A stretch of 44,558 bases of DNA, from the IMG/VR virus record IMGVR_UViG_2541047901_000009; one strand, written 5' to 3'. This DNA comes from a virus. Its lineage: Duplodnaviria > Heunggongvirae > Uroviricota > Caudoviricetes. Within the stretch, counting starts at the first letter, position 1, and the number at the start of each line of letters is the position of its first letter. A program made the translations under genes and the position numbers. The notes below the pieces were generated by a model. That model saw only the letters and a program-made list of their open reading frames with translations, was not told the DNA's origin and made no database searches. Positions 1 to 41,283 of the stretch are shown in pieces.

Positions 1-2109
1 TTACACCATACTGTTAACCTGGCCGGGTAATTCGCTAGCTGGAATACGAAAGGTATACCAGGCATAACGACAGCGTTTCCACAGGCTGGAGAAATGGAGA
101 TGATAAAGGCAATCTGCAATAATTTCGTTATCTGGATATAAAGACTCGGCAAAATGTGTCCAGCGCGCACTGAGTTTCATGTTAAACAGTTTTTCATCTT
201 CTTTGTTACCATACAGGCGCGACAAAGTAATCATTGCTTCGAGCGTACCTTTATTCGCTTCTTCTTGTACCTGTTGGAGGTGCAAATGAGCAAGTGAGAG
301 TTCTTTCACCTCAAAGATATTAAGTAAAAAAAGCCCCCATGCTTTTTCATGTCCAGCTTCATGAGCCAGAAATAAATTGTCAAGGAGATTTTTTTCATAA
401 ATAGCCCGTGTTTCTTTAGAAATTTCTTGTTTATTTAGTGCCTGGTAGCAGATAGCAATGCTAAAATAAATATTTTGTAGATCTTGTTGATGTTCGCTAT
501 AACCATAATTTTTTACCAGTGGATAAGATACCGAGCTATGGAAATTTAGGTCATCTTGAAGTATTTTAAGTGCCCGTCGAAAATACTCCAAAGCTGTAGA
601 TGGTTCATAAGGTAATTTTGTATTGTCTTCCTTATCCAAATATTCAAGAGCAACTAAATTTAATGCGGCAGGAATATTTCTTTGCTTACCAATTGTCGCA
701 AGCGGAATGAAATAATCAGAAAGGTCAAACCAACTCAAATCTTTTATTGCCGACCGCCAATTATGATTGTATTTAATGTCACTAGCTTTTTCCAGCCAAG
801 CATCGCCCTGCCCTTCATCTTTTTCAAAACCCAAAATACCCTCTCGCTGGAAAAACCCCCTATAAATAACAGGTGTAGCATAAGTTGTATTCTGTGAATT
901 TTGGCAGATAAAATTATATATCCAGAATGAATCTGGATAATAACTTAATGCAAATTTTATCGCGTACGCAGTGTAATAATTATTGAGCTTCATGTCTTCC
1001 ATCACCGCTCGCTGTATACAGCACCACAACTTATCGTGATCGTTCTGCTTGTTATAGCAGGCAAGTAACCACTCTAGGGCATTATGGCGACATTCCTGAA
1101 ATTGTGCGTACTGAGCAATATTCTCTGCTAAGTCGATTGCATATTGTTGCTCCTCGGGCGCAATGTCCTCAATGCTGACATCTCGGTAATCATCCCACCA
1201 AAGTAAGAGATCCATATAGTCATGTTCTTCGGTAGATAAGTGCTTACAGGTTACTGAATCCAGCAATTCGGAAATTTCTTTATGCGACCCTCCCCAGCGT
1301 GGCATTCGAAATGGTATATATTCAACAAAAGGATAAAAAGTGTGAGGAAAAATAGTCAGGCAAACAGAAAGCCAATATTTTTGCCCACCATCATCATCAT
1401 ACTCAGGAAGTATATTGGGGCGAGGCAAAACGGGGCATATTGCATGCTCAAACGAAAGTCCGGAATACGCCATCAACGCTTCCACTTCTTGCGGGGAGCG
1501 GCGGTGATAATTTTTCAGTGCGATCATTAATGGTATTCCTGCGACACTATCACCGTTAAGGTGTGCCGCCAGCCAGGCTGGCTGACCAAATACTTTTGAG
1601 TTGGTGCTGGTAAGTAATGCAGCCATCCATTGTCGTGGGTCACAATCAATTGCTTTAAGTGTAGCGATGACCATTTGTTCATTACATGCACCAGCACAAA
1701 GCCACATTGCATGTGTGGTATCATTTGCCCAGCCATAACTGCGATATAACCATGCACGGTGATTCCAGTATTGTGCTTCGGCAAGCCAGGCATGTGTAGA
1801 ATGAGGTCTTGCTTGCTGCCAGGTTTTAATGAGTCTTAAACCTTCTGTTCCGGCATCAACTAGCGTGTTCATATCATAAAAATAGTTGCACATTTGGGTC
1901 CAGGATAAAAAATAGCGCTTTTCAGCCTGACGAGAAGTGAAACTCTCCTGTAATACCTGGTTATAAATTTCATCTAGTTCCTGATAACGTTTTTCTTGTA
2001 ACATATAAGGAATATTTGCGATTTGCCATTTTCTCTCAAGAGTATTAAGTGGCATTTTTTGGTCACACATCTTTTGCATTGCACTGAGTAAACGAGCATC
2101 CTGTTCCAT
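1..2109 (-). CDS. Hypothetical protein, about 702 aa, Trp-rich, with an HEAGH (HExxH-like) motif near the C-terminus; last gene of a three-gene operon
   Basis: Long ORF 1..2148 on the minus strand. The likely true start is the ATG for MEQDARLL at about 2109, preceded by AAGGA and lying just after the stop of the upstream gene. No family recognised. Region is AT-rich by eye. Confidence 0.6.
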   Translation of the reverse strand: MEQDARLLSAMQKMCDQKMPLNTLERKWQIANIPYMLQEKRYQELDEIYNQVLQESFTSRQAEKRYFLSWTQMCNYFYDMNTLVDAGTEGLRLIKTWQQARPHSTHAWLAEAQYWNHRAWLYRSYGWANDTTHAMWLCAGACNEQMVIATLKAIDCDPRQWMAALLTSTNSKVFGQPAWLAAHLNGDSVAGIPLMIALKNYHRRSPQEVEALMAYSGLSFEHAICPVLPRPNILPEYDDDGGQKYWLSVCLTIFPHTFYPFVEYIPFRMPRWGGSHKEISELLDSVTCKHLSTEEHDYMDLLLWWDDYRDVSIEDIAPEEQQYAIDLAENIAQYAQFQECRHNALEWLLACYNKQNDHDKLWCCIQRAVMEDMKLNNYYTAYAIKFALSYYPDSFWIYNFICQNSQNTTYATPVIYRGFFQREGILGFEKDEGQGDAWLEKASDIKYNHNWRSAIKDLSWFDLSDYFIPLATIGKQRNIPAALNLVALEYLDKEDNTKLPYEPSTALEYFRRALKILQDDLNFHSSVSYPLVKNYGYSEHQQDLQNIYFSIAICYQALNKQEISKETRAIYEKNLLDNLFLAHEAGHEKAWGLFLLNIFEVKELSLAHLHLQQVQEEANKGTLEAMITLSRLYGNKEDEKLFNMKLSARWTHFAESLYPDNEIIADCLYHLHFSSLWKRCRYAWYTFRIPASELPGQVNSMV

Positions 2110-2119
2110 AGATATCCTT

Positions 2120-2836
2120 TTAATTAGGTTCAAAAATTTTAAATTCATTCCACGGCAATTTTTTCCAGTTACTGGATGGATCTTTCAACCATGCAGTGAC
2201 TTCCTTTAAATCACGGTTCGCAGTGGCGACGGGGGTATCGTATATCATTAACCATTTTTGTCGGGCGCGAACATAAGCACTGGCATAATCTTCCCATGAA
2301 GCGAAACAATCTTGTGCTCTTTGAGCATTCAGTAATAACACTATCCAGGCCTGGTTTTCATCGCACCAGCCTAAACCGGCGATGCAACGAGTTAAAAAAG
2401 CAGTGCGCATACAGTCAAACGCCAGCCCATCCAGAACCTGGCCTTGTGCTGCCAGTTGTTCGTAAAAATCATGTGGAGAATTACCAAGCCCTGTAGCCCA
2501 GCGCTGTAATATAACGCCAATTTGTTGACGGAAATCTTCGTTGCTTTGGTAAGTTTCTGTTCCTAGCTCTTGTTTAACCTGTAGTGCAAGTTGTTGACGC
2601 TTATCATCAGTCAACTTTAAATCTAACGTGAAGCCATTTACTGACAGTCCATTACGACGAGCAACTATATCACCAATTGCTAATGCCCACTTACGTCTCT
2701 TTGTTGCTCGTCTTTTGTCCTTGATTAGATCCTTTTCTTTTTCTTTAGCAATAAAAGCATCGATTTGTGGTTTGTTTTTTTTGTATCTATAGATAAAAAT
2801 AAATATTGCGACCAGGAGAACAATGATAAGACTCAT
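2120..2836 (-). CDS. Hypothetical membrane-anchored protein, 238 aa, single N-terminal transmembrane helix
   Basis: ORF with hydrophobic N-terminus (LIIVLLVAIFIFIY) followed by a Lys/Arg-rich stretch. Its start overlaps the stop of the upstream 404-aa gene, indicating translational coupling. Confidence 0.6.
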   Translation of the reverse strand: MSLIIVLLVAIFIFIYRYKKNKPQIDAFIAKEKEKDLIKDKRRATKRRKWALAIGDIVARRNGLSVNGFTLDLKLTDDKRQQLALQVKQELGTETYQSNEDFRQQIGVILQRWATGLGNSPHDFYEQLAAQGQVLDGLAFDCMRTAFLTRCIAGLGWCDENQAWIVLLLNAQRAQDCFASWEDYASAYVRARQKWLMIYDTPVATANRDLKEVTAWLKDPSSNWKKLPWNEFKIFEPN

Positions 2837-4050
2837 TATTTTTCAACCTCTGACAGGGGTAAGTAATGAGATGTCTGTAATGTCAAACTCTCTATCTCAA
2901 AGGAAATGTTGCTGATATTTTGACCTGCAAATTGCGGATGCCACTCAGCGCCAGGGAATAACATTTCCGCAGAAGTAGCAACTATAGGGTCAATAGCATT
3001 AAGATAATGTAACTTATCAGGTGCGCTGTGTAACAGTAACCACTGCAACTCCACTGAAGGATTTGTAAAATGTTCTAATAAATGAAAGTTATTATGTAGT
3101 ACGCTTAGTAAAAAACTGGTTTCGTATACTTCCGTTACATATTTCCACCCCTGATATTCAGGTGTATTTTCATAAACAATACCCATACCTTCACAATCAC
3201 TATGTCGAACTGCTTGTGGTGATAATAGTTGCAAAAGAGACAAAACATCGTCCGCATATTTTTTAACTGGATGACGATTTTGCTTACCTTTTATTTGATC
3301 AATTTCAAGTGAATCACCAACAACATTGAGAGCAATAGTAACATGAGGAATATTATTATTATCACGCAAACTGAATAACCGTAATTTATGTTGCTCAATT
3401 TGATTTGCATAATACTCACCATAACCACCGGTAAGATTTTTTCGATCATCAAACTGGCCTACGCAATGTTGCATATGCCATGATTCATAAGCCATTTCAC
3501 GACGAAGGTTCGAATGACTGGCATCAAACTCAACAATTTTTCCGTCTGGCACATCAAGTATTGACTTTACAGTATTTTGTTCACTCGGCTGCCACCCTTT
3601 CTCGCGTCGTTGAAGCATCTTTTCATGCTCTTCTTCACGCATTCTGAACGCAACGTAGCAGGTTATGCGCTGTAGTTTTGATTCCAGACGGGTACCACAT
3701 TTCCTGGAAAGAAATTCCACCAACTCCCGTTCTTTGGTTAATATTTGTTGATGATCGGTTTCGATATAATAAAGTGTCGCAGTTGATACTGAGGCAGTAT
3801 TAAACTTCGATACCAGCCATTCCGGGATTACATCATCATTTTTATTAAACAGTGAATATTCTGCAAGCGAGTTAATTTGTTGCACCATTGGAAAGTCACT
3901 AATTAGCCATCGATAAAAATGGTTGAGTAACCATTTTTGGATGGTCTCATTATCCTGGCGAAACAGACTTCTTTGCAAAATTGCTGTTTTTACTTCCGGG
4001 GCATTAATTACATCCCTTGCATTATAATTCTGGTGAATATTTCCAGTCAT
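2836..4050 (-). CDS. Hypothetical protein, 404 aa, first gene of the three-gene operon
   Basis: Uninterrupted 404-codon ORF, followed by about 220 bp of AT-rich upstream sequence. No recognisable catalytic motif. Confidence 0.6.
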   Translation of the reverse strand: MTGNIHQNYNARDVINAPEVKTAILQRSLFRQDNETIQKWLLNHFYRWLISDFPMVQQINSLAEYSLFNKNDDVIPEWLVSKFNTASVSTATLYYIETDHQQILTKERELVEFLSRKCGTRLESKLQRITCYVAFRMREEEHEKMLQRREKGWQPSEQNTVKSILDVPDGKIVEFDASHSNLRREMAYESWHMQHCVGQFDDRKNLTGGYGEYYANQIEQHKLRLFSLRDNNNIPHVTIALNVVGDSLEIDQIKGKQNRHPVKKYADDVLSLLQLLSPQAVRHSDCEGMGIVYENTPEYQGWKYVTEVYETSFLLSVLHNNFHLLEHFTNPSVELQWLLLHSAPDKLHYLNAIDPIVATSAEMLFPGAEWHPQFAGQNISNISFEIESLTLQTSHYLPLSEVEK

Positions 4051-4537
4051 AACATCCGCCCGTGTTTATTATATCACTCAAAGCAATAATTGTTGACTAT
4101 AGATTTTTTATCTAAATCAGCATGGTTGCAGGTACATACTCAAGTAAGCCACTCAAGAAAATAACGTAAACTCAATAGTGGCAGCGTCACAAACTTTGGA
4201 AATTATGTCTTATATTTGCAGTTTATTTTAGTGAATAATTGAGATAAATGACATTATTTTACATCCTCAATAATTCAGGCTGTAAGAGGACGGCAAATAC
4301 ATTCATAATTATCAGGGGATGAACATTCAGGAAAGTAGTCAGTATCGTCAACTTTTTCTTTTATCACTACATGAAGATTTCGTGTAGATACTCCCATCTC
4401 TGCCACTTCTCCCCTCACATTTACACTGGAGCTAAACCCGCCGATTGCGCTACAATGCCCGCCCTTAAAGTGGGGGCACTCCCCTAACCGCTTCATCAGG
4501 TGAAGCGGCTCTGACCTGTCATCAGAACGAGAGAATT

Positions 4538-5899
4538 ATGTTTAAACCGGAACTCCTTTCCCCGGCGGGAACGCTGAAAAATATGCGTTACGCTTTCGCT
4601 TATGGCGCAGATGCTGTTTATGCGGGCCAGCCGCGTTACTCCCTGCGTGTACGCAACAACGAATTCAACCACGAAAATCTTCAGCTCGGCATCAATGAAG
4701 CCCACGCGCTGGGGAAAAAGTTTTATGTCGTGGTCAACATTGCACCGCACAACGCCAAGCTGAAAACCTTTATCCGTGACCTGAAACCGGTGGTGGAAAT
4801 GGGGCCGGATGCGCTGATTATGTCCGATCCAGGGCTGATTATGCTGGTGCGTGAACACTTCCCGGAAATGCCAATCCACCTCTCGGTACAGGCTAACGCC
4901 GTAAACTGGGCGACGGTGAAATTCTGGCAGCAAATGGGTCTGACCCGCGTGATCCTCTCTCGCGAACTGTCACTGGAAGAGATTGAAGAGATCCGCAATC
5001 AGGTGCCGGATATGGAGATCGAAATCTTCGTTCACGGCGCGCTGTGCATGGCCTACTCCGGTCGCTGCCTGCTCTCTGGCTATATCAACAAGCGCGACCC
5101 GAACCAGGGCACCTGCACCAACGCCTGCCGCTGGGAGTACAATGTCCAGGAAGGGAAAGAAGATGACGTCGGCAACATCGTACACAAGTACGAGCCGATT
5201 CCGGTGCAAAATGTTGAGCCGACGCTGGGTATCGGCGCGCCAACCGACAAAGTGTTTATGATCGAAGAAGCCCAGCGTCCGGGCGAGTATATGACCGCGT
5301 TTGAAGATGAGCACGGCACTTACATCATGAACTCGAAAGATCTGCGCGCCATCGCCCATGTTGAACGCCTGACCAAAATGGGCGTGCATTCGCTGAAAAT
5401 CGAAGGCCGTACCAAATCTTTCTACTATTGCGCACGCACCGCGCAGGTTTACCGTAAAGCTATCGATGACGCCGCTGCGGGCAAACCGTTCGATACCAGC
5501 CTGCTGGAAACGCTGGAAGGTCTGGCGCATCGTGGCTATACCGAAGGTTTCCTGCGTCGTCATACCCACGACGATTATCAGAACTACGAATACGGTTATT
5601 CGGTTTCTGACCGCCAGCAGTTTGTTGGTGAGTTTACCGGTGAGCGCAAGGGGGAGCTCGCGGCGGTAGCGGTGAAAAATAAATTCTCCGTTGGCGACAG
5701 CCTTGAGCTGATGACGCCGCAAGGCAACATTAACTTTACCCTTGAGCATATGGAAAACGCCAAAGGTGAAGCGATGCCGGTCGCACCAGGCGATGGTTAT
5801 ACTGTGTGGCTCCCGGTGCCGCAGGATCTTGAGCTAAATTACGCGCTGCTGATGCGTAATTTCTCCGGGGAAACCACGCGTAACCCCCACGGTAAGTGA
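4538..5899 (+). CDS. yegQ: Peptidase U32 family protein YegQ (tRNA hydroxylation protein TrhP)
   Basis: 453-aa translation recognised as the E. coli YegQ/U32 collagenase-like family (conserved core around EIFVHGALCMAYSGRCLLS). The P2 remnant ogrK sits directly downstream of yegQ in E. coli K-12, and this window has a full prophage at that position. Confidence 0.92.
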   Translation: MFKPELLSPAGTLKNMRYAFAYGADAVYAGQPRYSLRVRNNEFNHENLQLGINEAHALGKKFYVVVNIAPHNAKLKTFIRDLKPVVEMGPDALIMSDPGLIMLVREHFPEMPIHLSVQANAVNWATVKFWQQMGLTRVILSRELSLEEIEEIRNQVPDMEIEIFVHGALCMAYSGRCLLSGYINKRDPNQGTCTNACRWEYNVQEGKEDDVGNIVHKYEPIPVQNVEPTLGIGAPTDKVFMIEEAQRPGEYMTAFEDEHGTYIMNSKDLRAIAHVERLTKMGVHSLKIEGRTKSFYYCARTAQVYRKAIDDAAAGKPFDTSLLETLEGLAHRGYTEGFLRRHTHDDYQNYEYGYSVSDRQQFVGEFTGERKGELAAVAVKNKFSVGDSLELMTPQGNINFTLEHMENAKGEAMPVAPGDGYTVWLPVPQDLELNYALLMRNFSGETTRNPHGK

Positions 5900-6043
5900 T
5901 TAATTTCGATTATTTTTCCCGGATGGAAAATTCTTAGAAACCGATCACATACAGCTGCATTTATTAAGGTTATCATCCGTTTCGCTGAAAAACATAACCC
6001 ATAAAATGCTAGCTGTACCAGGAACCACCTCCTTAGCCTGTGT

Positions 6044-6071
6044 AATCTCCCTTACACGGGCTTATTTTTTA
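6044..6071. repeat. Prophage attachment-site core, ogr-proximal copy (28-bp direct repeat AATCTCCCTTACACGGGCTTATTTTTTA)
   Basis: The identical 28-mer recurs at 43886-43913 next to int. It contains the remembered P2 att core (AAAAAATAAGCCCGTGTAAGGGAGATT) in reverse orientation. Confidence 0.85.
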
Positions 6072-6132
6072 CGCGTAACACAATGAAATAAAAGGATTTA
6101 TTTCTGGTCACGTCCACACATTGACCACATCG

Positions 6133-6158
6133 ACAAAAAAGCCCCTCGACTGAGGGGC
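6133..6158 (-). terminator. Probable rho-independent terminator downstream of ogr
   Basis: GC-rich hairpin GCCCCTC-gact-GAGGGGC followed on the minus strand by a T-run (plus-strand AAAAAA at 6135-6140). Confidence 0.5.
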
Positions 6159-6171
6159 TTCCTGTTTGTAA

Positions 6172-6390
6172 TTACATCCACATAATTTGCTGCCCTGACG
6201 GCAACGGGTGCGGTCTTACGGCGTGGACTTCTCCCGGCTTCACGATGTATCGCTGTACCGACTCATAAGTGATGAATGTGGCGCTGCAATTCACGTTCTG
6301 ACACTGGTGATAACGCTCTTTTGTCGTGTCAGTGATATAGCGGCTTGTACGCGCATGTGCGGCATGCTGGCATAAAGGACAATGAAACAT
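6172..6390 (-). CDS. ogr: P2 Ogr late-gene transcriptional activator (zinc-finger)
   Basis: 72-aa product from the internal Met (MFHCPLCQHAAHARTSRYITDTTKERYHQCQNVNC...) with CxxC...CxxC, matching P2 Ogr. The ORF-track N-terminal extension was rejected. Confidence 0.9.
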   Translation of the reverse strand: MFHCPLCQHAAHARTSRYITDTTKERYHQCQNVNCSATFITYESVQRYIVKPGEVHAVRPHPLPSGQQIMWM

Positions 6391-6471
6391 CGCGAGCACC
6401 TCTTCCGGTTTTGTTGATGGTGCCATTTTAGTTAATTTATCCTTATAAAACAAACAGATAAATAAATTACA

Positions 6472-7635
6472 TCACTCATCATCTTCTGTTTCGTACTCCA
6501 CATCAGAAAGCCTGACCTCAAGCTCTAAGGACGTCGTGAAGCCGCTATTATTCAGAAAATGTGTCACCTTAGTGATTGTCCAGTCCTGCTCGTCTATGAC
6601 GCGCTTAAAGCCTGATACTTTAACCGGTGTTTCCGTGTAAATATCAGCACGACCGGTAGCCAGGCTGATGGAGAACTCCGCAACGCCCCGTTGCAGTTTA
6701 TCCCACTTCGCCTGAGCGGCACGCATGGCCTGTGCTTTCGTGGCATATACCGTGGTCAGGGCAAAAACGTTGTCAGCCTCACCGGCCATGTATTCACCTT
6801 CGCGCGCTTCCGGTACTCTTGGCGCTTTCTTCTGCCTGACCGGTTTTGCTTTCGGGTGCTCCAGTGCGCGCAGGTGTTTTTCTTTCTTTTTGCGTTTCAG
6901 TTTTACCTTCTGCTTTTGCGGCTTCGGGTCTTTGGTGTGTAACCACTTTGCCGTTACGCCGGTATAGGCTCCACGGTCAGCAATCGCAAAATGATGGCGG
7001 TCGCCGTCGCTGCGGGTGATGGTGACCTGCGGGATTTTTTTACCGCTGGCCGTCACCCCCTGCCCCGCTTTGAGAAACAGCAGTTTTCCCATTTTTACCG
7101 ACACCTCACCGCCGTTGCGTTCTGCAAGACGGGTCAGGAATTTCGCATCAGACTCCTGCGACTGGTCGATGTGCGGAATTTTAATTCCGGCCAGTGACGG
7201 AGCGATACTGGCTTCCAGCCTGTTACGGGAGGCAATCGCCTCAACAATCGCACCGAGCGTGGTGTCATGCCAGGAGCCTTCCCGGCGGGAATTGAGCGTC
7301 CCGCGAAAATCTGCACTCCGGGCGCGGATGGTGACCACATCCGGCGCGCCCCGGTGTTCAACCTCATCAACGGTAAATTTCCCTTTGCATACCAGGGCAA
7401 AACCTTTCCAGCCGATATACACCGTCAGGACAGCGCCACGAACCGGCAGCCCGACCTGCCCGTCGGCATCGTTCAGTTCAATATCAAGCTGGTCAGCCTC
7501 AAAGCCCCGGTTATCCGTCAGGGTCATGCTCATCAGACGGTCGCTGATATTGCCGGTAATATCCCTGCTGTCGAGCATCAGCATGTAATCCGGCGTCAGC
7601 GTACTGCCTGCATCAAATGTCAGCGCATCCAGCAT
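6472..7635 (-). CDS. D: P2 gpD tail protein
   Basis: 387 aa, the same length and position as P2 D, between U and ogr. Confidence 0.88.
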   Translation of the reverse strand: MLDALTFDAGSTLTPDYMLMLDSRDITGNISDRLMSMTLTDNRGFEADQLDIELNDADGQVGLPVRGAVLTVYIGWKGFALVCKGKFTVDEVEHRGAPDVVTIRARSADFRGTLNSRREGSWHDTTLGAIVEAIASRNRLEASIAPSLAGIKIPHIDQSQESDAKFLTRLAERNGGEVSVKMGKLLFLKAGQGVTASGKKIPQVTITRSDGDRHHFAIADRGAYTGVTAKWLHTKDPKPQKQKVKLKRKKKEKHLRALEHPKAKPVRQKKAPRVPEAREGEYMAGEADNVFALTTVYATKAQAMRAAQAKWDKLQRGVAEFSISLATGRADIYTETPVKVSGFKRVIDEQDWTITKVTHFLNNSGFTTSLELEVRLSDVEYETEDDE

Positions 7636-8114
7636 TATCCCGCCCCCGTCATACCCGTGAATTTAGTCGCCATACTGCCAGCCTTACCGATGAGCGATTC
7701 CGCCTGTTTACCGATATCGCCATAAAGCGCGGCCAGTGATTCATCAACGCGGGTGAGCGACAGCGTAAAATCAATTTTTCGGGGTGTGCCGTCTGCAAAG
7801 AAAATACTCCCTGTTTCACTCACCCTGCTGATGACATACATGCCGTAAATCATGCCGGTGCCATCCAGCAACGGCCACGCCCGGCCTTCCTCTGCCATCA
7901 GTCTGAGCGTGGTCATCGTCAGCTTTCCGCCGGTCAGTTCTGGATAAAGCACACCGGCAAGCGTAATGTTTTCCTCACCCACACCGAGAAACTGGTAGGC
8001 ATCCCGTTTGCCGATACGGGAATTTGACGGCCAGCGATAATCTGATTCACGCTGCATGGTCTGGTGTGGCAGCGTCTGGCGCATAAAAACAAACATACCT
8101 AACGCGAGCATCAT
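7635..8114 (-). CDS. U: P2 gpU tail protein
   Basis: 159 aa, in the P2 U position and of P2 U length. Confidence 0.85.
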   Translation of the reverse strand: MMLALGMFVFMRQTLPHQTMQRESDYRWPSNSRIGKRDAYQFLGVGEENITLAGVLYPELTGGKLTMTTLRLMAEEGRAWPLLDGTGMIYGMYVISRVSETGSIFFADGTPRKIDFTLSLTRVDESLAALYGDIGKQAESLIGKAGSMATKFTGMTGAG

Positions 8115-8128
8115 TTTTCGTCACCTCC

Positions 8129-10576
8129 TTAACCGTCATGCATCATGCTGGCACGGGCGCGCGCACGTTTATCCCGCTCGTATTTTTCGAGCGCATCCTG
8201 TAACTGGCGGTCAAGCTGTGTCCCCGGCGCAGTACCACCCGTCAGGCTGATGTGATATTCGTTTTTACTCTGGTCCACATAAGAGCGGCCAGCCGGTGCC
8301 GTGACCGGCTGATAAGCTTGATAGCCTGCATAAGAGCTGGTCGCCGGAATATAACCACCGGTGCCATACGTGGCGGCATGAGTTCTGGCGGCGGTCTGGT
8401 CAAGTGTGTCTGACTCTTTGTTGATGACCCCGAGCTTTTCCAGTACCCAGTCAATGCCGCTGCGCAGTTTGTTGAACGCATTAAGCGGCAGCATCAGCGC
8501 GTCAGCCAGTGCCTGCCCGAACATGACGCCCGTGTCACGGCAACGGTTCAGGGTGTCCTGTGTGGCTTTGACCGGGGCAATCAGGTTTTTAAACCACTGC
8601 CACGCGGCCTGTAACTTTTCGCCCAGCCAGTCAAACACCGGCTTAAGTGGCGTGAACAGTTCCCCCACCGGCGCAAATGCCGCTTTCAGCCCTTCCACCA
8701 CACCGCCAAAGAATGCGCTGACAGGCTCCCAGTATTTACGGATAAGCAACGCACCGGCGACAATGGCGGCCACCACGGCCACAACCGGCCAGCTAATCGC
8801 CCCGATGGCCGTCATAACAGCACTGCCAACCGTCGTGAAGATTGCCCCCATTGCGCCTGCTGCCGCGATGATGGCATTGATGCCAGTGATAACCGGCCAG
8901 GCTACGAGGCCAATGGCACCGATGACAGCAGTCAGCGCCAGTGCACCACCGACAATGAGGCCGATGGTTGACGCCAGTGATTTGTTTTTCTGGATCCAGC
9001 CGTCGAGTTTTAACACATACTTTGTGGCCGTCTGCGTGAGCTTACGCAGTGCGCCTTCCTGCTGGTCAAACAGGTCAGTCCCCACCGCCTCATAAGCGGA
9101 CTGAAACTCCTTAAAGTCACCGCCGAGGTTGTCCTGCATGATATTTACCAGCTCGGCGGTCTTCCCGTCTGAGGCTTTAAACGCAGCGGTCAGTTTGTCC
9201 AGCTTTCCAGTTGAGGCGGCAGTCATCAGCACGGCGGCGGCTGAGCTGGCCTCCTCCCCGAAAATAGTTTTCATGTATTCAGCCTGCTGGGCAGTACCGA
9301 GCCGGTTTTTCTCAAAACTGGCCTGCATTTCTTTCAGAATGGTAAATACTGGTCGAGTATTCCCTTTACTGTCTGAGGTTTTCACGCCAAGCTCTTTCAG
9401 TGCATCCCATGCTTTTCCCGTCGGTGCCTGCAGGCGGCTTAACACGGCACGGCTTCCCGTCCCCGCCATTGAACCGGTAATTTTTGCATCATGCAGCGCC
9501 CCGACCATTGCGGCGGTTTCTTCAATGCTGACACCAGCATTTTTTGCCACAGGTGCGGCATAGGTCAGCGCATCGCTCATGCCATCAAAATCGGCGGCGG
9601 TTTTGTTCATCGTCATGGAGAGAACATCCCCGATATGAGCGACCTTATCGTTTGAAAGCTGAAAGGCGGATTTCATCCCCATCAGCAGGGCGGCGTTTTC
9701 TTCCATCGTGCGACGGTTCGCCAGCGCCATATTCAGCGTGACCGGCGTTGCCGCCTGAATGGCATCAACATCCCCACCGGCTTTCGCAATAATAATCTGC
9801 GCACCGGCTGCATCATCTGCCGAGGCTGCGGTATTGTCGCCGAGCTGGCGCGCCTGCTTGCGTAGTGCAGCCATTTCGGCGGAGTCTTTTGCCACACCGA
9901 GCACAGCCTGCAATTCTGAGTTTTTCTGCGCAAACTCATAACCGGGCATCAGCAACTTAACTCCGGCCATCGTTCCCGCAGCAGCAATCCCCACACCGGC
10001 AGCGCCCACTGAGGCCATATTTCCGGCCAGTTCCTTTCCGGCCTGATAACGCTGTTTTACTGCGTTAAGTTTTGCCTGTTGTGCACTGACACGCGCCAGC
10101 GCGTCACGCTGACGGTTAAGCTGTGCGGTGGTTTCACTGATACGGTTTTTCAGTCCCTGCTCATCATGTGCAAGATTGCGGGTATTAATTCCCACAGCGG
10201 CCAGTTCCCGCTGCTGGCGTTTAATGGAATCTGTCAGGCGGTTATATTTCGCCTGTAAGTCCTCCGCCGCACGCTTTGCGGATTCCAGCACTTTCGCCTG
10301 AGCACGGGTCGGACGTTCAGTGTTTTTAAACTGTGTGGCAAGGGCTTCGGCTTCCTGCCGTGCCTTTTCAAGTGCATGACCAGTCACGGCAAGCTGTGCG
10401 CTGGTCTTGCGAAATCCCTCAATACGGGATGCGTGACCGTTCAGCTCGCGCAGTGATTTTTGTGTTTCCCGGATATCCCCCGACAGCGACTTACTCGCTG
10501 TGCGGATGGATTTAAACGGGCGGGATGCCTGGTCAACAGCCCTGAGCAATACCTGTAATTTTACATTGTTACTCAT
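8129..10576 (-). CDS. T: P2 gpT tail tape measure protein
   Basis: 815 aa, Ala/Gly-rich with coiled-coil and hydrophobic segments, located after E/E'. Confidence 0.9.
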   Translation of the reverse strand: MSNNVKLQVLLRAVDQASRPFKSIRTASKSLSGDIRETQKSLRELNGHASRIEGFRKTSAQLAVTGHALEKARQEAEALATQFKNTERPTRAQAKVLESAKRAAEDLQAKYNRLTDSIKRQQRELAAVGINTRNLAHDEQGLKNRISETTAQLNRQRDALARVSAQQAKLNAVKQRYQAGKELAGNMASVGAAGVGIAAAGTMAGVKLLMPGYEFAQKNSELQAVLGVAKDSAEMAALRKQARQLGDNTAASADDAAGAQIIIAKAGGDVDAIQAATPVTLNMALANRRTMEENAALLMGMKSAFQLSNDKVAHIGDVLSMTMNKTAADFDGMSDALTYAAPVAKNAGVSIEETAAMVGALHDAKITGSMAGTGSRAVLSRLQAPTGKAWDALKELGVKTSDSKGNTRPVFTILKEMQASFEKNRLGTAQQAEYMKTIFGEEASSAAAVLMTAASTGKLDKLTAAFKASDGKTAELVNIMQDNLGGDFKEFQSAYEAVGTDLFDQQEGALRKLTQTATKYVLKLDGWIQKNKSLASTIGLIVGGALALTAVIGAIGLVAWPVITGINAIIAAAGAMGAIFTTVGSAVMTAIGAISWPVVAVVAAIVAGALLIRKYWEPVSAFFGGVVEGLKAAFAPVGELFTPLKPVFDWLGEKLQAAWQWFKNLIAPVKATQDTLNRCRDTGVMFGQALADALMLPLNAFNKLRSGIDWVLEKLGVINKESDTLDQTAARTHAATYGTGGYIPATSSYAGYQAYQPVTAPAGRSYVDQSKNEYHISLTGGTAPGTQLDRQLQDALEKYERDKRARARASMMHDG

Positions 10577-10996
10577 TCGTGTTTCCGCTTCGCCGGAGCG
10601 CCTTTTCGCGCCATGTGATGAGTTCGATCAGGCTCATGGGATACAGTTCTGATGGCGGCCAGTGAAATATCACTGCCACATCCGCCATCAGGTCATCGAC
10701 CGAGAGATTTTTCGGGAACGTTACTGCACCGAGTTCGGCGACAAAAAACCGACCACCTTACCGGCCAGCGCCACAAGGTCAGGCAGTTCCAGCGCGGCGA
10801 CTTCCTGCTCGGTCAGCATCGGTGCCGTCATGCGCGGCAGCACCTTAATCAGTGCATCGACTTCGGAGTTCGCGACCGCAGCCAGACTGACACCGCGCAG
10901 CGTCCCGGCATTAGGTTTCATCAGCGTGACCTGTTCGATAACCTGCTCACCACGCTTGACCGGATTGTCCAGGGTAATCACATTTTCTTTGTTCAT
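10569..10996 (-). CDS. E': P2 gpE+E' product made by programmed -1 ribosomal frameshift
   Basis: From the slippery site GGTTTTTTG (about 10742-10750) the -1 frame stays open for about 50 codons by hand translation and stops at TAA overlapping the T start codon (ACGAATGAGTAA). Confidence 0.65.
10721..10996 (-). CDS. E: P2 gpE tail assembly chaperone
   Basis: 91 aa ending GFLSPNSVQ. The 3' end carries the slippery heptamer TTTTTTG used for the E/E' frameshift. Confidence 0.88.
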   Translation of the reverse strand: MNKENVITLDNPVKRGEQVIEQVTLMKPNAGTLRGVSLAAVANSEVDALIKVLPRMTAPMLTEQEVAALELPDLVALAGKVVGFLSPNSVQ

Positions 10997-11052
10997 GGTT
11001 TTCTCACTTCTGAATCGGGGTTAACCGGTCAGCCAGGCTGACCGGATGAAAA

Positions 11053-11571
11053 TCACAGGCCGATATTGCGGCGGTGTTGCTCCAGCCGGTCGACGCCGTT
11101 CACCTTCTCAATCATGTTGATGGTGTCGATTTCGACCAGCTCCTTACCGTCCATCGTCAGCCGGAAATAGGTGCAGACCACGGAGATTTTCGACTCGGTG
11201 TCTTCTCCCTGTTTGCCCTCGCCGGTGTCGATTTCTTTCTGACGTCCACGCATGACCACCTCGACGGCCACCGTTTCGCCGGTATCGTCGCGCTGGTAAG
11301 AGCCTGCAAAACGAATCGGTACGGAATCCACACCGGTTGCGGCGTAAAGCTCCCAGATAACCGAATCCGGGAAGCCACCGAGCGACCACTCCATTGACAG
11401 CGCATCGTCATCAAGGCCGAGGTCTACCGGTGCGCTGCCGTTCATCCCCGCACCGCGATAGTTTTCGAGCTTACGGGTCAGTTTTGGTAGCGTGACGGAC
11501 TTCGCGACGCCCTGATAGCTGTAGCCGTTCAGAAAGACGTTCATTAACTTGAGTTTGCGCGGCATTGCCAT
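11053..11571 (-). CDS. FII: P2 gpFII tail tube protein
   Basis: 172 aa, in the P2 FII position. Confidence 0.9.
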   Translation of the reverse strand: MAMPRKLKLMNVFLNGYSYQGVAKSVTLPKLTRKLENYRGAGMNGSAPVDLGLDDDALSMEWSLGGFPDSVIWELYAATGVDSVPIRFAGSYQRDDTGETVAVEVVMRGRQKEIDTGEGKQGEDTESKISVVCTYFRLTMDGKELVEIDTINMIEKVNGVDRLEQHRRNIGL

Positions 11572-11583
11572 CGGTCAGGCTCC

Positions 11584-12774
11584 TTAATTGCTGTTAACCG
11601 AGGTGACCAGATTTGCCAGGTATTTATCGGTAATACGCTGGCGCAGGGTCAGGTTTTCAAGAGGAGGCACCGGTGTATAGTCGTAGTCGATATACAGTTT
11701 TCCGGCCTTGAGGGTTTCCGCATCGTTGGATTCTTCGCTGAACCAGCAGGTCGCATCCACGATATAGCCGTTTGTTTTCAGCTCACGGAATTTGGCATTG
11801 ATGCCGTCAACGATGTCGCGAATCAGCGTTGCGGTGATGGGCTTGTCCACCGCCCACATGTGCGCCTCAGCCATCGTGTCGGCCATCACCTGCGCGGTGC
11901 GGGTGTAGTTTTCAAAGAGGAACAGCGGGTCATCAGAGCAGGTACGGTTACCCCAGAATCGGAAACCGTCGCGGCGAATCAGCGTAGTGACGCCTGACTC
12001 GTTAAGCAGGTCAGCATCGGTGCCGGACTCCTGCAAATCCCAGAATACAGATGCGCTGATGCCGGTAACACCGTTTACCCCGACGTTGGACAGCGTTTTA
12101 TGCCAGCCCTGCTCCTGGTCGATTTTAGCGCGCAGACCCAGCGCACGGGCGGTGGCATACGCGGTGGCGGTGGTACTGGTGACCGTATCCCATGCGAGGA
12201 AATCCGGCCAGATGACCATCAGCTCACGCTGGCTGAAATTCTGGCGGTAGGCTTTCACCTCGGAAATGGTCTTACAGCCCCATGCGCTGATATATCCGAA
12301 AGCGCGCAGCTTCTGACAGACGGATGCCAGTGCAACAGCCACCTCTTTGGTATCCAGTCCCGGCACACCGAGAATACGCGGTTTAACACCGGTTACCGAC
12401 TCCGCCGCCAGCAGGGCTTTTAGTCCGGTGTACTGACCGTTTTCGTCGGTGGTGCCGATGATATTGGAAACGGTCTGCGCGAGTTTCGTTTCCTCGTCAT
12501 CACCGGTGCCGTCTTCCACGCGCACGACAACGGTGACCGGTTTTGACTGGTCAGCGATGGCCTGCAACGATGCCGCCAGCGTGCCTTTTTTACCGGCCTT
12601 TGCAATTGCGCTTTGCACATTGGTAATCAGCACCGGTTTATTGAGGGGGAAGGTTTCCGCATCCGCATCGCTGGCCGTGCAGACCATGCCGACAATGGCA
12701 GTGGATACGGTGGAAATGACGCGGGTGCCGTCGTTAATCTCCAGCACCTGCACGCCATGATGATAGTCACTCAT
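11584..12774 (-). CDS. FI: P2 gpFI contractile tail sheath protein
   Basis: 396 aa, in the P2 FI position. Confidence 0.9.
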   Translation of the reverse strand: MSDYHHGVQVLEINDGTRVISTVSTAIVGMVCTASDADAETFPLNKPVLITNVQSAIAKAGKKGTLAASLQAIADQSKPVTVVVRVEDGTGDDEETKLAQTVSNIIGTTDENGQYTGLKALLAAESVTGVKPRILGVPGLDTKEVAVALASVCQKLRAFGYISAWGCKTISEVKAYRQNFSQRELMVIWPDFLAWDTVTSTTATAYATARALGLRAKIDQEQGWHKTLSNVGVNGVTGISASVFWDLQESGTDADLLNESGVTTLIRRDGFRFWGNRTCSDDPLFLFENYTRTAQVMADTMAEAHMWAVDKPITATLIRDIVDGINAKFRELKTNGYIVDATCWFSEESNDAETLKAGKLYIDYDYTPVPPLENLTLRQRITDKYLANLVTSVNSN

Positions 12775-12870
12775 CCGTTTAACTCCGTGGTTAATGGGTG
12801 CAACTATTTTCTGTTGTGCAGAGCATAAGACGCTATTTGACCTGGCTGGTCAGTGGATGAAACAACAGAT

Positions 12871-12897
12871 AAAGAAAAGGCGGGCAATTCGCCCGCC
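12871..12897 (-). terminator. Hairpin terminator upstream of FI
   Basis: Perfect stem GGCGGGC-aattc-GCCCGCC at 12879-12897, followed on the minus strand by a T-run (plus-strand AAAGAAAA). Confidence 0.5.
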
Positions 12898-12957
12898 TGT
12901 CCTGATTTGTACTCACTCATTTTCCGCCTGACAATTTACATAGCCCAAATGCTATCA

Positions 12958-12973
12958 AATCTGACAGTCTGCT
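12958..12973. repeat. 16-bp repeat AATCTGACAGTCTGCT, left copy, flanking the Z/fun-locus cargo
   Basis: Its exact reverse complement occurs at 15392-15407, and a 22/25 direct near-copy at 15264-15288. Confidence 0.8.
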
Positions 12974-13104
12974 TTGAGCGAAAAGTGGACATTAGAGTTA
13001 CAAAAGCAAGTTTAAATCATCCAAAATATTACAATGTCCTTATCTATCTGATATCGTTATGATAAAAAGCTCCTGAATATAATCGATAGTAGGTGGTTAT
13101 TTCC

Positions 13105-30273: not shown

Positions 30274-32046
30274 ATGACCATCACCACAGACACCACTCTT
30301 TTACACGACCCGCGTCGTCAGGCGGCGCTGCTGTACTGGCAGGGATTTTCCGTGCCGCAGATTGCCGCCATGTTGCAGATGAAACGCCCGACGGTGCAGA
30401 GCTGGAAACAGCGCGACGGCTGGGACAGCGTTGCTCCCATCAGCCGTGTCGAAATGAGTCTGGAAGCGCGGCTGACCCAGCTCATCATCAAACCGCAGAA
30501 AACCGGTGGTGACTTCAAGGAAATTGACCTGCTGGGACGCCAGATTGAACGACTGGCACGGGTAAACCGCTACAGTCAGACCGGCAACGAGGCAGACCTT
30601 AATCCGAACGTCGCTAACCGCAACAAAGGCGGGCGTCGCAAACCGAAAAAGAATTTTTTCAGTGACGAGGCCATCGAAAAGCTGGAGCAGATTTTCTTTG
30701 AGCAGTCTTTCGAATATCAGTTGCACTGGTATCGCGCCGGGCTTGAGCACCGCATCCGCGATATCCTGAAATCCCGCCAGATTGGCGCGACGTTTTATTT
30801 TTCCCGCGAGGCGCTGCTGCGCGCCCTGAAAACCGGTCATAACCAGATTTTTCTGTCGGCCAGTAAAACGCAGGCGTATGTGTTCCGCGAATACATCATC
30901 GCCTTTGCCCGGCTGGTTGACGTTGACCTGACCGGTGACCCGATTGTCCTGGGCAATAACGGCGCAAAACTGATTTTTCTCGGCACCAACTCCAACACCG
31001 CACAGAGCCATAACGGCGACCTGTACGTCGACGAGATTTTCTGGATCCCGAATTTTCAGGTACTGCGTAAGGTGGCATCAGGTATGGCCTCACAGAGTCA
31101 CCTGCGCTCGACCTATTTCTCCACCCCGTCCACGCTGGCGCACGACGCCTACCCGTTCTGGTCGGGTGAACTGTTCAACCGGGGACGCGCCAGCGCCGCC
31201 GAACGCGTGGAAATCGACGTCAGTCATAACGCCCTTGCCGGAGGTCTTCTCTGTGCGGACGGCCAGTGGCGGCAGATTGTCACCATTGAGGACGCCCTGA
31301 AAGGCGGCTGCACGCTGTTCGACATTGAGCAGCTCAAACGTGAAAACAGCGCCGACGATTTTAAAAACCTGTTCATGTGTGAATTTGTTGACGACAAGGC
31401 GTCGGTGTTCCCGTTCGAGGAGCTGCAACGCTGCATGGTCGACACGCTGGAAGAATGGGAAGACTATGCGCCGTTTGCCGCGAATCCGTTCGGCTCCCGC
31501 CCGGTATGGATTGGTTACGACCCGTCACACCGTGGCGACAGCGCCGGATGCGTGGTACTGGCACCGCCGGTGGTGGCCGGTGGCAAATTCAGAATACTTG
31601 AGCGTCACCAGTGGAAAGGCATGGACTTTGCCACTCAGGCGGAATCCATCCGCAAACTCACCGAAAAATACAACGTCGAATACATCGGTATTGATGCCAC
31701 CGGCCTCGGTGTCGGCGTGTTCCAGCTCGTGCGCTCGTTCTATCCCGCCGCGCGCGACATCCGCTACACGCCGGAAATGAAAACCGCAATGGTGCTCAAG
31801 GCCAAAGACGTTATCCGCCGTGGCTGTCTGGAATATGACGTCAGCGCCACCGACATCACCAGCTCGTTTATGGCTATCCGCAAGACCATGACCAGCAGCG
31901 GACGCAGCGCCACCTATGAGGCCAGCCGCAGCGAGGAAGCCAGCCACGCCGACCTCGCCTGGGCGACCATGCACGCCCTGTTAAATGAGCCACTCACCGC
32001 AGGTATCAGCACCCCGCTGACATCCACCATTCTGGAGTTTTACTGA
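30274..32046 (+). CDS. P: P2 gpP terminase large (ATPase) subunit
   Basis: 590 aa from the internal Met (MTITTDTTLL...), divergent from O across the late-promoter region. Confidence 0.92.
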   Translation: MTITTDTTLLHDPRRQAALLYWQGFSVPQIAAMLQMKRPTVQSWKQRDGWDSVAPISRVEMSLEARLTQLIIKPQKTGGDFKEIDLLGRQIERLARVNRYSQTGNEADLNPNVANRNKGGRRKPKKNFFSDEAIEKLEQIFFEQSFEYQLHWYRAGLEHRIRDILKSRQIGATFYFSREALLRALKTGHNQIFLSASKTQAYVFREYIIAFARLVDVDLTGDPIVLGNNGAKLIFLGTNSNTAQSHNGDLYVDEIFWIPNFQVLRKVASGMASQSHLRSTYFSTPSTLAHDAYPFWSGELFNRGRASAAERVEIDVSHNALAGGLLCADGQWRQIVTIEDALKGGCTLFDIEQLKRENSADDFKNLFMCEFVDDKASVFPFEELQRCMVDTLEEWEDYAPFAANPFGSRPVWIGYDPSHRGDSAGCVVLAPPVVAGGKFRILERHQWKGMDFATQAESIRKLTEKYNVEYIGIDATGLGVGVFQLVRSFYPAARDIRYTPEMKTAMVLKAKDVIRRGCLEYDVSATDITSSFMAIRKTMTSSGRSATYEASRSEEASHADLAWATMHALLNEPLTAGISTPLTSTILEFY

Positions 32047-32135
32047 TGAGTGCGTATTACCGTGAAGGAGATCGGTGAGTAACATCGATGGAGATCGGTT
32101 CGTGTCACTTTCACAGAACCGTTTTTAAATTACCT

Positions 32136-32885
32136 TCACTGATCTCCTTCGGTCAACGGTGATTGTATTTTCCGCATTGATTCTCCTTTAAGTTCGATCT
32201 TGATACTGCCATGAACCAGTCGATCTAGGATGGCATCCGCATGTGTGGAGTCTCCGATCATTTTGTACCAGTTTTCCACCGGCAACTGGCTCACTACGAT
32301 GATTGAGCCTCGTTGGTACATCAGATCCACTATTTCCAGCAGGTCGCTACGCTGTTCTGATGAGAGAGGTTCCAGCCCCCAGTCATCCAGAAGCAGCAGA
32401 TCGCTATTATTCAGCCTGGTCAAAAGTTTGCTGTATCTTCCATCAGCATGCCCCTGATAGCACTGTTCCATCAGCGCTTTAAGGCGATAATAGTAGACCT
32501 TGTATCCCTGTCGGCAGGCATTATGACCAAGTGCACATGCCAGGAACGTTTTACCGCTGCCGGTGGCCCCGGTCAGTAAAATATTTTGTTTCAGGGTTAA
32601 CCAGTTTCCCTGACTGAGTGAACGGATGAGGGCCCTGTCCAGCCCTCTATTGTTACGATAATCCAGCTTTGATAACTCAGCATTAAGTCTGAACCGTGCA
32701 TGTTTGATCAGACGCTCTGCCTTCCTGTTTTCACGGCAGGTTAGTTCTTCTGCTGTCAGTAATGACAGGCGTTCTTCGAAGCCCAGCTCCTGGTATGTGC
32801 CCGGCTGAGCAAGTTGCTTTTTAAGCGCATCACGGAAGCCGGTGAGTTTAAGTGCGGTCAGTTGTTCGTAAAGATGATTCATCAT
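32136..32885 (-). CDS. istB: IS21-family helper ATPase IstB
   Basis: 249 aa with Walker A LLTGATGSGKTFLACALG and Walker B LLLLDDWG. Confidence 0.93.
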   Translation of the reverse strand: MMNHLYEQLTALKLTGFRDALKKQLAQPGTYQELGFEERLSLLTAEELTCRENRKAERLIKHARFRLNAELSKLDYRNNRGLDRALIRSLSQGNWLTLKQNILLTGATGSGKTFLACALGHNACRQGYKVYYYRLKALMEQCYQGHADGRYSKLLTRLNNSDLLLLDDWGLEPLSSEQRSDLLEIVDLMYQRGSIIVVSQLPVENWYKMIGDSTHADAILDRLVHGSIKIELKGESMRKIQSPLTEGDQ

Positions 32886-32896
32886 TGGATCCCGTA

Positions 32897-34438
32897 TCAG
32901 TGGTAATACTCACTGCCGCGTACGTTTTCGTGTTCCATCGTGGATAACAGATCTGGTTTTGGATCCTGAACAGGTTGTTTATCCAGACCTTTTTCCAGGA
33001 TCGATTTAATACCTGACAGACGCCATACCTTTGTTTTCAGAGCTCTTGCACATGCTGCATTAAGTCTGGCTTTACTGTATTTTTTATGAAGGTTCAGGAG
33101 TCCAAGGCAGAAGCGATAGCTTTGTTCCGGATGTGGACGAGAGTTCAGTATATGAAGCACATAACTATGAGTTTCACTGCCTATGTGCCCCGCCCATTCC
33201 AGAAGACGCTCTGGCGTCCAGGTGGCATGCTGTCGATGAGCTTCAGGCATGTGCTCGTTGCGGGTACTGTAGCCATAAGTACGCTTGCGCGGGTGCACAG
33301 CAACCTCCTGCCCCTGATTGAAGAGTCTTACCAGTTCTCCGGAGATCCATGCTTCCAGTTGCTGGCCTAACAGCGAACATGGAACCGAGTAGTAATGTTT
33401 GTCGATTTCCACGTGGTAATCGGCATGAACTCTGACTTTCTTCACCAGGGTGTAACTGTAACTGGCTTCAGGAAGAGGCTTCAGTGCGGGTTTATCAAGC
33501 TGGATGAAGAGTTCTGCACGTGAATAACCCAACTTCTGCATTATTTTGTTATTCAGTCTTTCCAGCAACTCCCGAATGCGCTGATTAAGCGATGCAAGGC
33601 TGTAGAAGATCTCATGCCTGATTCGGGCCATGATCCAGCGTTCAACAACCTGAACGCCAACTTCAGCTTTGGCTTTATCTTTCGGTTTACGTGGCCGCGC
33701 AGGCAAAACTGCGACATTATAATGCTCAAGCATCTGCTGGTAGGTAGGGTTAACGTCAGGATCATACTTACATGCCCTGGATGTGGCGCTTTTCAGATTG
33801 TCCGGAACAACAAGTTCAGGAACGCCACCCAACCACTGGAAGCAGCGAACATGACTCATCACCCAGTCTTCAAGCTGCTGAGACCAGGTGGCCTCTGCCC
33901 ATGTGTAACTTGATGCCCCGAGAACAGCTACGATGACCTGAGCAGTTCTTATTTCTCCGGTCTCAGGGTCGGTAACGCCAACGGTAGGTCCACAGTAATC
34001 AACGAAAAGTTTTTCGCCAGCTTTATGTACCTGACGCATTGATGGTGAAGTGGTTTTGAGCCATTCACGGTACATCCGGCAGTAATGGTTATAGCTGTAA
34101 AAACCGCCTGGATTACGCTCACAGTATTCTTCCCAGAGTAGCTGCAGCGTCACGCATTTATTACGCAGTTCCCGGTGTACTGTAGCCCAGTCAGGCAGAG
34201 AGTGCTTCTTCATCTTAACCTGGGTCTGAAGGAACGCATGTTTTAGTTTTGTATCATCCCATCCTGTAGGTAAGGGCCACTGCTTTATGCCAAGTTGAGC
34301 CGCCCGATTAGCATATCTGGATACAACGGAAGGGGAGATTGCAAGACTACGACCAATTTGTCGATGGCTGAGTCCAACACCGTATTTAAGCCTAAGAATT
34401 TCTTTAAGTTTTCTCATAGAAATTGGAACTGTTGGCAT
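32897..34438 (-). CDS. istA: IS21-family transposase IstA
   Basis: 513 aa with an N-terminal HTH and DDE integrase core, immediately upstream of istB. Confidence 0.92.
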   Translation of the reverse strand: MPTVPISMRKLKEILRLKYGVGLSHRQIGRSLAISPSVVSRYANRAAQLGIKQWPLPTGWDDTKLKHAFLQTQVKMKKHSLPDWATVHRELRNKCVTLQLLWEEYCERNPGGFYSYNHYCRMYREWLKTTSPSMRQVHKAGEKLFVDYCGPTVGVTDPETGEIRTAQVIVAVLGASSYTWAEATWSQQLEDWVMSHVRCFQWLGGVPELVVPDNLKSATSRACKYDPDVNPTYQQMLEHYNVAVLPARPRKPKDKAKAEVGVQVVERWIMARIRHEIFYSLASLNQRIRELLERLNNKIMQKLGYSRAELFIQLDKPALKPLPEASYSYTLVKKVRVHADYHVEIDKHYYSVPCSLLGQQLEAWISGELVRLFNQGQEVAVHPRKRTYGYSTRNEHMPEAHRQHATWTPERLLEWAGHIGSETHSYVLHILNSRPHPEQSYRFCLGLLNLHKKYSKARLNAACARALKTKVWRLSGIKSILEKGLDKQPVQDPKPDLLSTMEHENVRGSEYYH

Positions 34439-34632
34439 AGGTATCCTTTACCGGAATGGCAAAAGATACAGATCAACACACCTGTGAAGTTCCAATAACA
34501 TTGATGGAGATCACTGAATAACAAAATGAGTCAAAAGTGATCTCCATCGATGTTATTCAGCGATCTGTTCAAATGTTATTACCCGATCTCGATGGAAGTT
34601 ATTGAGTGATCTCCTTTCATGAAAATACGCAG

Positions 34633-40724: not shown

Positions 40725-40726
40725 TA

Positions 40727-41029: not shown

Positions 41030-41283
41030 AGTACCTCCCCGCGAGACAATCCGATATTGTGAAATTTTTCCGACTCCTGACTGAGCAGCTCGACTATCTC
41101 CACGCGGGATAACTCCGCCTTTGTGATGTGGCGAATCATGGCGTCAAGATGAGAAGAAAAGCGCGTCGCCGCGTCGGCCTGTGCTTCGGTTCTGGTCTGT
41201 TGCAGCAGTAATGCGTATTTACCGCACTGATTTTCAGAAACTGTATGCATGACTTTCTCCAGGCAAAAAGAAGCCCCGCACAA
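41026..41283 (-). CDS. Small protein at the P2 orf80 position, 85 aa
   Basis: Start/stop overlap with neighbours in the B-to-A block. Confidence 0.55.

Follow-up and report, generated by a model that had tools for sequence, protein, structure and literature searches.

What lies between the host gene yegQ and the phage gene ogr at positions 5900-6171 of the window (the whole 44,558-nt stretch of DNA analysed here, IMG/VR record IMGVR_UViG_2541047901_000009), and what does it say about the prophage that begins there? An initial sequence-only reading had placed a prophage in the yegQ-yegR site, where Escherichia coli K-12 retains only the ogrK/yegZ remnant, and MG1655 indeed shows that remnant at this position. 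We consider it about 95% probable that the segment is the attL of a 37.8-kb P2-type (Peduovirus) prophage, that it occupies the well-known chromosomal P2 site between yegQ and yegR, that the target was the terminator of the small RNA gene cyaR and that this copy of the prophage is no longer autonomous. No evidence contradicting the attL/attR reading was found.

Repeats, prophage boundaries and the empty site

The 28-mer AATCTCCCTTACACGGGCTTATTTTTTA is found exactly twice on the + strand of the window, at 6044-6071 and 43886-43913, with 0 mismatches and a start-to-start distance of 37,842 bp; the coordinates given by the sequence-only reading were right. No further copies were present in the window when up to 3 mismatches were allowed, and none would be expected by chance, with 0 matches in 100 dinucleotide-preserving shuffles. 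Similarity between the two repeats extends past the 28-mer, reaching 33/35 identical positions up to 6078 and 43920, respectively. Alignment with phage P2 (AF063097) gave two blocks of homology, window 6044-12989 with P2 24382-17433 (96.7% identity) and window 37986-43913 with P2 30286-24355 (97.3% identity). These blocks meet at the repeat, so that the prophage corresponds to a circularly permuted P2 opened there. Moreover, the 28-mer equals P2 24355-24382, that is, the annotated 27-nt attP (24356-24382) plus one more shared base, confirming upon comparison with P2 attP that the repeat contains the P2 att core. P2 homology starts precisely at 6044, the first base of the left copy (attL core, 6044-6071, +), and matches of empty genomes to the region of the right copy (attR core, 43886-43913, +) begin precisely at 43886.

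The prophage is flanked on the left by yegQ (trhP; 4538-5899, +), as annotated by PGAP in the near-identical MS7163 and 97.4% identical to yegQ of K-12, and on the right by yegR (44241-44558, -), as seen in the ORF list and in the annotations of K-12 and MS7163. Upstream of yegQ, window positions 1-4050 contain three genes on the - strand, encoding DUF4034, DUF1266 and PcfJ-domain proteins, where K-12 and EC291 have baeR-yegP. The PcfJ gene is also found in EcPF5, and homology to K-12 exists only from window position 4447.

An empty site was identified in EcPF5, where yegQ and yegR are separated by a 500-bp spacer with no prophage. An attB rebuilt from window 5900-6071 and 43914-44240 is identical to this spacer at 498 of 499 positions. 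The spacer consists of left flank, core and right flank, and so contains one core. The site is also empty in EC291, which resembles EcPF5 except for a 169-bp indel near yegR and a run of T7 rather than T6. Both genomes thus bear out the expectation that, in related strains, the site without a prophage has the core once, bordered by the same flanks. Across 5426 complete E. coli genomes, the yegQ-core-ogr junction was found in 1129 and the int-core-flank junction in 815, whilst almost all remaining genomes match from precisely the first core base onward. A K-12-type junction was found in 356 genomes, the examples among the matches listed being laboratory derivatives of K-12. These three junction counts do not sum consistently.

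The 169-bp indel corresponds to an AT-rich segment before yegR (44067-44235), which the window and EcPF5 have and K-12 and EC291 lack; this polymorphism has nothing to do with the prophage. The T-run of the core (6063-6070 and 43905-43912) is T6 in the window, P2 and EcPF5, whereas EC291 and the second, partial core of K-12 have T7. In E. coli ECDA1023 and Kluyvera intermedia, what adjoins this cyaR core is another P2-like P arm (GCCTGTAATAAACTGAAATAAAAGAATTTATTTCTCTCAATGTCCAC...), and therefore other P2-like phages use this site, another genus included. The site is also occupied in the E. coli type strain, DSM 30083, by a different but related P2-like prophage. Its int (1014 bp) is intact, and ISEc12 lies within an AAA-ATPase gene that forms part of the old/tin-slot cargo.

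That the 28-mers recur by chance, or delimit a mobile element unrelated to P2 integration, can be practically dismissed. Nothing beyond the existence of a repeat speaks for it, and it is opposed by the shuffled sequences, by the precise coincidence of the end of P2 homology with the repeats and by the precision of the empty sites. The attL/attR reading was previously said to give exact prophage boundaries. This holds to within the 28-bp identity, since the crossover point inside it is unreadable from sequence. Within that limit, the analysis provides base-accurate boundaries for a P2-type prophage of the S88/MS7163 (O45:K1:H7-like) lineage.

The arrangement of the surrounding elements likewise follows P2, in whose record the IHF, P- and P'-arm Int and Cox sites, together with ogr, its terminator and int, are annotated where the window would lead one to expect them. 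The P' arm and core show no difference from P2 (100% identity), and an attP rebuilt from both junctions is identical to it at 257 of 263 positions. On the P arm, an IHF site is predicted at 6069-6102 from its position relative to P2 24324-24357 in an ungapped alignment, and Int arm-type sites are predicted at 6106-6133 (-) from the P2 annotation (24293-24320). On the other side, the P2 annotation predicts a P' arm at 43772-43869, with Int arm-type sites (P2 24470-24496) and a Cox-binding region at 43796-43869 (P2 24399-24472). A motif scan with the Int arm-type consensus of P2-type phages, tgTGGaCa (PMC3448106), located TGTGGACG at 6111-6118 and TGTGGTCA at 6122-6129 on the P arm, and two copies of TGTGGACA on the - strand of the P' arm, at 43779-43786 and 43790-43797. 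On both arms the motif pairs are direct repeats with 11-bp spacing.

As previously suggested, ogr lies just inside the left repeat (6172-6390, -), 100 nt inward. It encodes the 72-aa late-gene activator, with an Ogr_Delta zinc-finger domain (Pfam E 1e-21, in agreement with PGAP) and 97% identity to P2 ogr. It is followed by the ogr/F-operon terminator (6138-6161, -; P2 24265-24288), which has a hairpin at 6139-6160, and is preceded by gene D (6472-7635, -; 387 codons). Towards the right end, cox (41992-42267, -), encoding the excisionase and Pc repressor, is intact according to the ORF list and to the MS7163 annotation by PGAP, whose coordinates are offset by 1443 bp; so is the P2-type immunity repressor gene C (42382-42681, +), according to the ORF list and the MS7163 annotation. 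By analogy with established P2 biology, we infer both the binding-site positions and the mechanism, with Int and IHF acting in integration and Int, IHF and Cox in excision. Int, a tyrosine recombinase, together with IHF would have exchanged strands inside the core identity, producing an attL in which intact cyaR is joined to the phage P arm and ogr, and an attR (43886-43913) in which a 3' fragment of cyaR is joined to the P' arm and int.

The core as the cyaR terminator and a probable P-arm relic in the host flank

The P2 att-site interpretation of the sequence-only reading stands; what it lacked is the identity of the core as the cyaR terminator. A search against Rfam matched CyaR/RyeE (RF00112) at 5982-6067 with 100.7 bits (gathering threshold 47), E 4e-19, covering model positions 1-85 of 85. 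The cyaR (ryeE) gene is intact (5982-6070, +), its final 27 nt falling within the attL core, and together with its promoter region it is 100% identical to K-12. A terminator scan and an MFE fold gave the same hairpin for the intrinsic terminator (6035-6070, +), consisting of an 11-bp stem and a 6-nt loop (6035-6062) followed by the T-run at 6063-6070. Within this terminator, the 28-bp core begins 2 nt before the end of the 5' stem arm and runs through the loop and the 3' arm to include the U-tail. As these 28 nt are also present in the phage, its integration restores an intact cyaR at attL. The core spans only the loop and 3' arm and therefore attR holds a non-functional cyaR 3' fragment that is missing the 5' stem arm; neither the terminator scan nor folding found a terminator hairpin at the attR core. 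The P2 att core is thus the terminator of the regulatory RNA CyaR and not anonymous intergenic DNA, and CyaR remains intact in lysogens.

CyaR is under the control of CRP (PMC3333887). A putative CRP site, TTAGA-N6-TCACA, can be read from the sequence at 5934-5949 (+), approximately -42 from the RNA start, which would fit a class II position in the cyaR promoter.

One genome per species was scanned for CCCTTACACGGGCTTATTTTTT. The core was present in E. coli, Shigella, E. ruysiae, many Kluyvera species and Enterobacter hormaechei, and was preceded by the same ~45 nt of left flank in all loci except one in E. ruysiae, which is an attR junction with a phage P' arm. In the 5' arm of the terminator, E. 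coli has a T where several Kluyvera have a C, exchanging a G-U pair for a G-C pair. The sequence to the right of the T-run varies between genera, whilst cyaR and the core are kept in Kluyvera, Enterobacter and E. ruysiae.

The right-hand host flank in E. coli contains a decayed copy of the P2 P arm (43914-43964, +), detected by repeat search and alignment and carrying a 16-bp gap relative to the phage. After the 16-bp offset, 40 nt align at 75% identity (6099-6138 with 43925-43964), and a local alignment of flank 43924-43964 with the P arm has z = 6.2, with 0 of 500 shuffles reaching an equal score. The similarity is also found in empty sites and in K-12, and 5410 of the 5426 complete genomes have a match to the region right of the core. 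The arm-type motif TGTGGTCA is unchanged in the flank (43948-43955, -; motif scan). It falls within a 15-nt block, CATTGACCACATCGA (43942-43956), which contains one Int arm-type site. This block does not differ from the phage sequence in any of the window, EcPF5, EC291, K-12, ECMA0423 and Escherichia sp. MOD1, while the relic around it has decayed to ~60-75% identity. Over 56 ungapped positions, 43 agree between the P arm and the flank of Escherichia sp. MOD1-EC7003 (score 30, shuffle maximum 17), and the match includes 16 nt, the IHF-site segment, that are missing from E. coli. A P-arm-like flank is absent beside cyaR in Kluyvera, Enterobacter and E. ruysiae.

In the simplest reading of these data, the P arm of an ancient P2-type element stayed behind beside cyaR before E. 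coli diversified, making today's attB a scar. The reverse direction, in which P2 once took host DNA by imprecise excision, so that the P arm is host-derived and the flank is no phage fossil, draws on the fact that the similarity is significant whilst its direction is unreadable from two sequences alone. However, the shared block holds an Int arm-type motif of the P2-type consensus (PMC3448106), the flank is missing in Kluyvera, Enterobacter and E. ruysiae, which keep cyaR and the core, and retention of the IHF segment in MOD1 beside a 16-bp deletion in E. coli is the pattern of a decaying insert. We therefore regard a host origin of the P arm as unlikely and favour the ancient insertion.

Three extensions of the relic were rejected. 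The left host flank (5900-6043) is not a relative of the P' arm, scoring 10 against a shuffle mean of 9.5; the relic does not reach past 43970 into an ogr/D relic (z = -0.2); and a 13-nt match of the E. ruysiae flank to the start of ogr is not significant (score 15, shuffle maximum 18).

It is conceivable, if improbable, that the preferred P2 attB comprises the core and an arm-type site that would aid capture of Int, rather than the core only. If this were true, with CATTGACCACATCGA kept by selection or phage conversion and binding Int, it could explain the preference for this site over secondary sites.

Integrase lesion, insertion sequences and cargo

The sequence-only reading put int just inside the right repeat. 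Its position is correct, 79 nt inward, but the gene is not intact. Translation and alignment with P2 int show a pseudogene (42797-43806, +), annotated by PGAP in MS7163 as 'phage integrase, frameshifted'. A 4-bp deletion after 43445 reduces an AAAC repeat from 3 copies in P2 to 2, and the frame stops after residue 231, before most of the catalytic domain. Consistent with this, the Pfam Phage_integrase match covers profile positions 2-65 of 172, approximately the first third. The gene is otherwise ~99% identical to P2 int. The frameshift allele was found exactly in only 4 of 760 records (MS7163, S88, N53 and N62), the remaining 756 int copies having the 64-bp wild-type version at the lesion. 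Occurrence of the same allele in four independent assemblies indicates a real lineage-specific lesion and not a sequencing error.

Apart from the position of ISEc12 and the presence of an IS110-family element, the window is 100% identical to MS7163. ISEc12, of the IS21 family (32051-34631, -), was delimited by comparison with MS7163. It sits exactly between the stop of P (32044-32046) and the start of Q (34633-34635), which overlap, thereby splitting the P-Q operon, and is accompanied by a 6-bp target duplication, GATGAG. In the MS7163 prophage ISEc12 interrupts the capsid gene N instead. As the prophages are otherwise identical, the element has moved or inserted independently within the lineage.

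The 1438-bp IS110-family element (24325-25762, -) was recognised by comparison with MS7163, which does not have it, by inspection of the sequence and by Pfam matches to DEDD_Tnp_IS110 and Transposase_20, the DEDD transposase being encoded at 24597-25616 (-). It separates the ribosome-binding site of lysA from the lysA ATG. No IS110 element was found at this position among the complete E. coli genomes. IS110 copies in other genomes, which lie at the junction of lambdoid minor tail protein L and C40 peptidase genes, also match beyond the element, over ~15 nt on its left side and 9 nt on its right. The targets are therefore alike, as expected of sequence-guided IS110 targeting.

Three of the P2 variable slots, for which a hotspot concept has been put forward (PMC9122126), hold cargo not found in P2 (12990-15374, 21153-22455 and 35856-37985). 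The Z/fun slot encodes a hypothetical protein, a 194-aa C-terminal fragment of Phage_integrase and a DUF5677 protein. The orf30 slot encodes a 359-aa RelA_SpoT-domain protein, a PADLOC candidate (PDC-S33), and the old/tin slot a 610-aa DUF7380 protein, also a PADLOC candidate (PDC-S39, E 8e-85).

Could the prophage nevertheless be a fully functional, excisable P2 lysogen whose att/int module works as in P2? The cores, arms, Cox sites, cox and C are all intact and 97-100% identical to P2, and every structural gene retains an open reading frame. Set against this are the int deletion, which ends the frame at residue 231; its presence in four independent assemblies, S88 among them; the position of ISEc12 between the portal gene Q and the P promoter; and that of the IS110 element within the O operon, ahead of lysA, lysB, R and S. 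Taken together, these lesions make a functional lysogen very improbable. The att sites are still members of the P2-type family, while the adjacent functional tyrosine integrase of a P2-type integration module is lacking. Judged by its sequence, the module is non-functional in cis and the prophage is probably locked in and defective. It would give P2 immunity and keep its cargo whilst being unable to excise itself, and is probably also unable to make particles. With cox, the arm sites and both att sites undamaged, excision by a P2-type Int supplied in trans could still occur.

The K-12 remnant and relation to known systems

In K-12 MG1655 the gene order is yegQ, core, ogrK (-), a truncated D pseudogene annotated as 'phage late control D family' (-) and yegR (-). 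The window aligns with K-12 without gaps from 4447 to 6684, and K-12 resumes at window 43895, the breakpoint 6684 | 43895 lying at positions 3980-3990 of the K-12 locus extract. K-12 thus keeps only 6472-6684 of gene D, the last 70 of 387 codons with the break at codon 317/318, and a partial second core, positions 10-28, broken between core positions 9 and 10. One deletion equal to window 6685-43894 (37,210 bp) would convert a window-like state to that of K-12, and structurally the window prophage represents an early stage toward a K-12-like ogrK remnant. Identity to the window is 98.0% for the P arm, 98.2% for ogr and 94.6% for the D fragment. As the phage segment of K-12 is just 94.6-98.2% identical, it derives from a different P2-like lineage. 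The earlier suggestion that the window reconstructs the ancestral state of the K-12 locus is therefore upheld in structure but not literally, given the other lineage and the partial second core.

Whether the K-12 deletion was random or made by aberrant Int recombination between the attR core and a pseudo-core in D can be considered from its two ends. The right break centres on the core dyad CCC-TTACAC-GGG, the exchange point expected of a tyrosine recombinase, and the first matching base of K-12-type genomes is query position 396 (window 43895). On the D side, however, GAACTCCGCAACGCCCCGTTGCAGTTTA matches the core at only 14 of 28 positions (7 of 15 in the centre) and ranks 183 among same-strand 28-mers of the prophage. 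Weighing also against recombination by Int is a chance endpoint within the 28-bp target, itself unlikely. Because the D side is a mediocre core look-alike, we consider Int-made deletion doubtful, if a possibility of some substance, relative to a random deletion.

The window prophage is in early decay, with an int frameshift and two IS elements but intact cargo genes, and K-12 represents the end stage at the same site. The locus is of value for annotation and as a tidy illustration of how a prophage decays at a single attachment site; current understanding is unchanged. The fossil arm in attB and the in-core K-12 breakpoint are only mildly new points and the rest is known.

Compared with the K-12 remnant, the host junction is alike, running from yegQ through cyaR/core and the P arm to ogr and the 3' end of D. 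K-12 differs in having no equivalent of window 6685-43894: there, ogr and a truncated D are joined to the yegR-side flank, whereas the window has a full-length prophage. Phage P2 attP and locI, the latter reportedly preferred by P2 in E. coli C, have a 27-nt core identical to that of the window, and there is agreement in the Int arm sites, in the IHF and Cox regions and in the order ogr-att-int. What differs is int, a pseudogene in the window prophage. In addition, the prophage is 37.8 kb long, against 33.6 kb for P2, owing to both IS elements and to cargo in the Z/fun, orf30 and old/tin slots that is unlike that of P2.

The RNA itself is no different from CyaR as represented by RF00112, but downstream of its U-tract is phage DNA and not the usual host flank. 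In E. coli, ryeE was described as a 'previously known' phage target by Bobay et al. 2013, citing Wassarman et al. 2001 (PMC3603311). The 3' ends of RNA genes also serve as targets for 186 (tRNA-Ile), for Fels-2 and SopE-phi (ssrA) and, in Salmonella, at ryeB/sdsR (PMC3448106; PMC3603311; PMC3333887). Targeting of the cyaR terminator is the logic of integration into tRNA genes applied to an sRNA gene, and is already known. As with the integrases that target tRNA, tmRNA and sRNA genes, the phage core copies the 3' part of the RNA and the gene survives integration. In contrast to tRNA-type targets, the target in the window is the terminator of an Hfq-type sRNA and not a tRNA-like fold.
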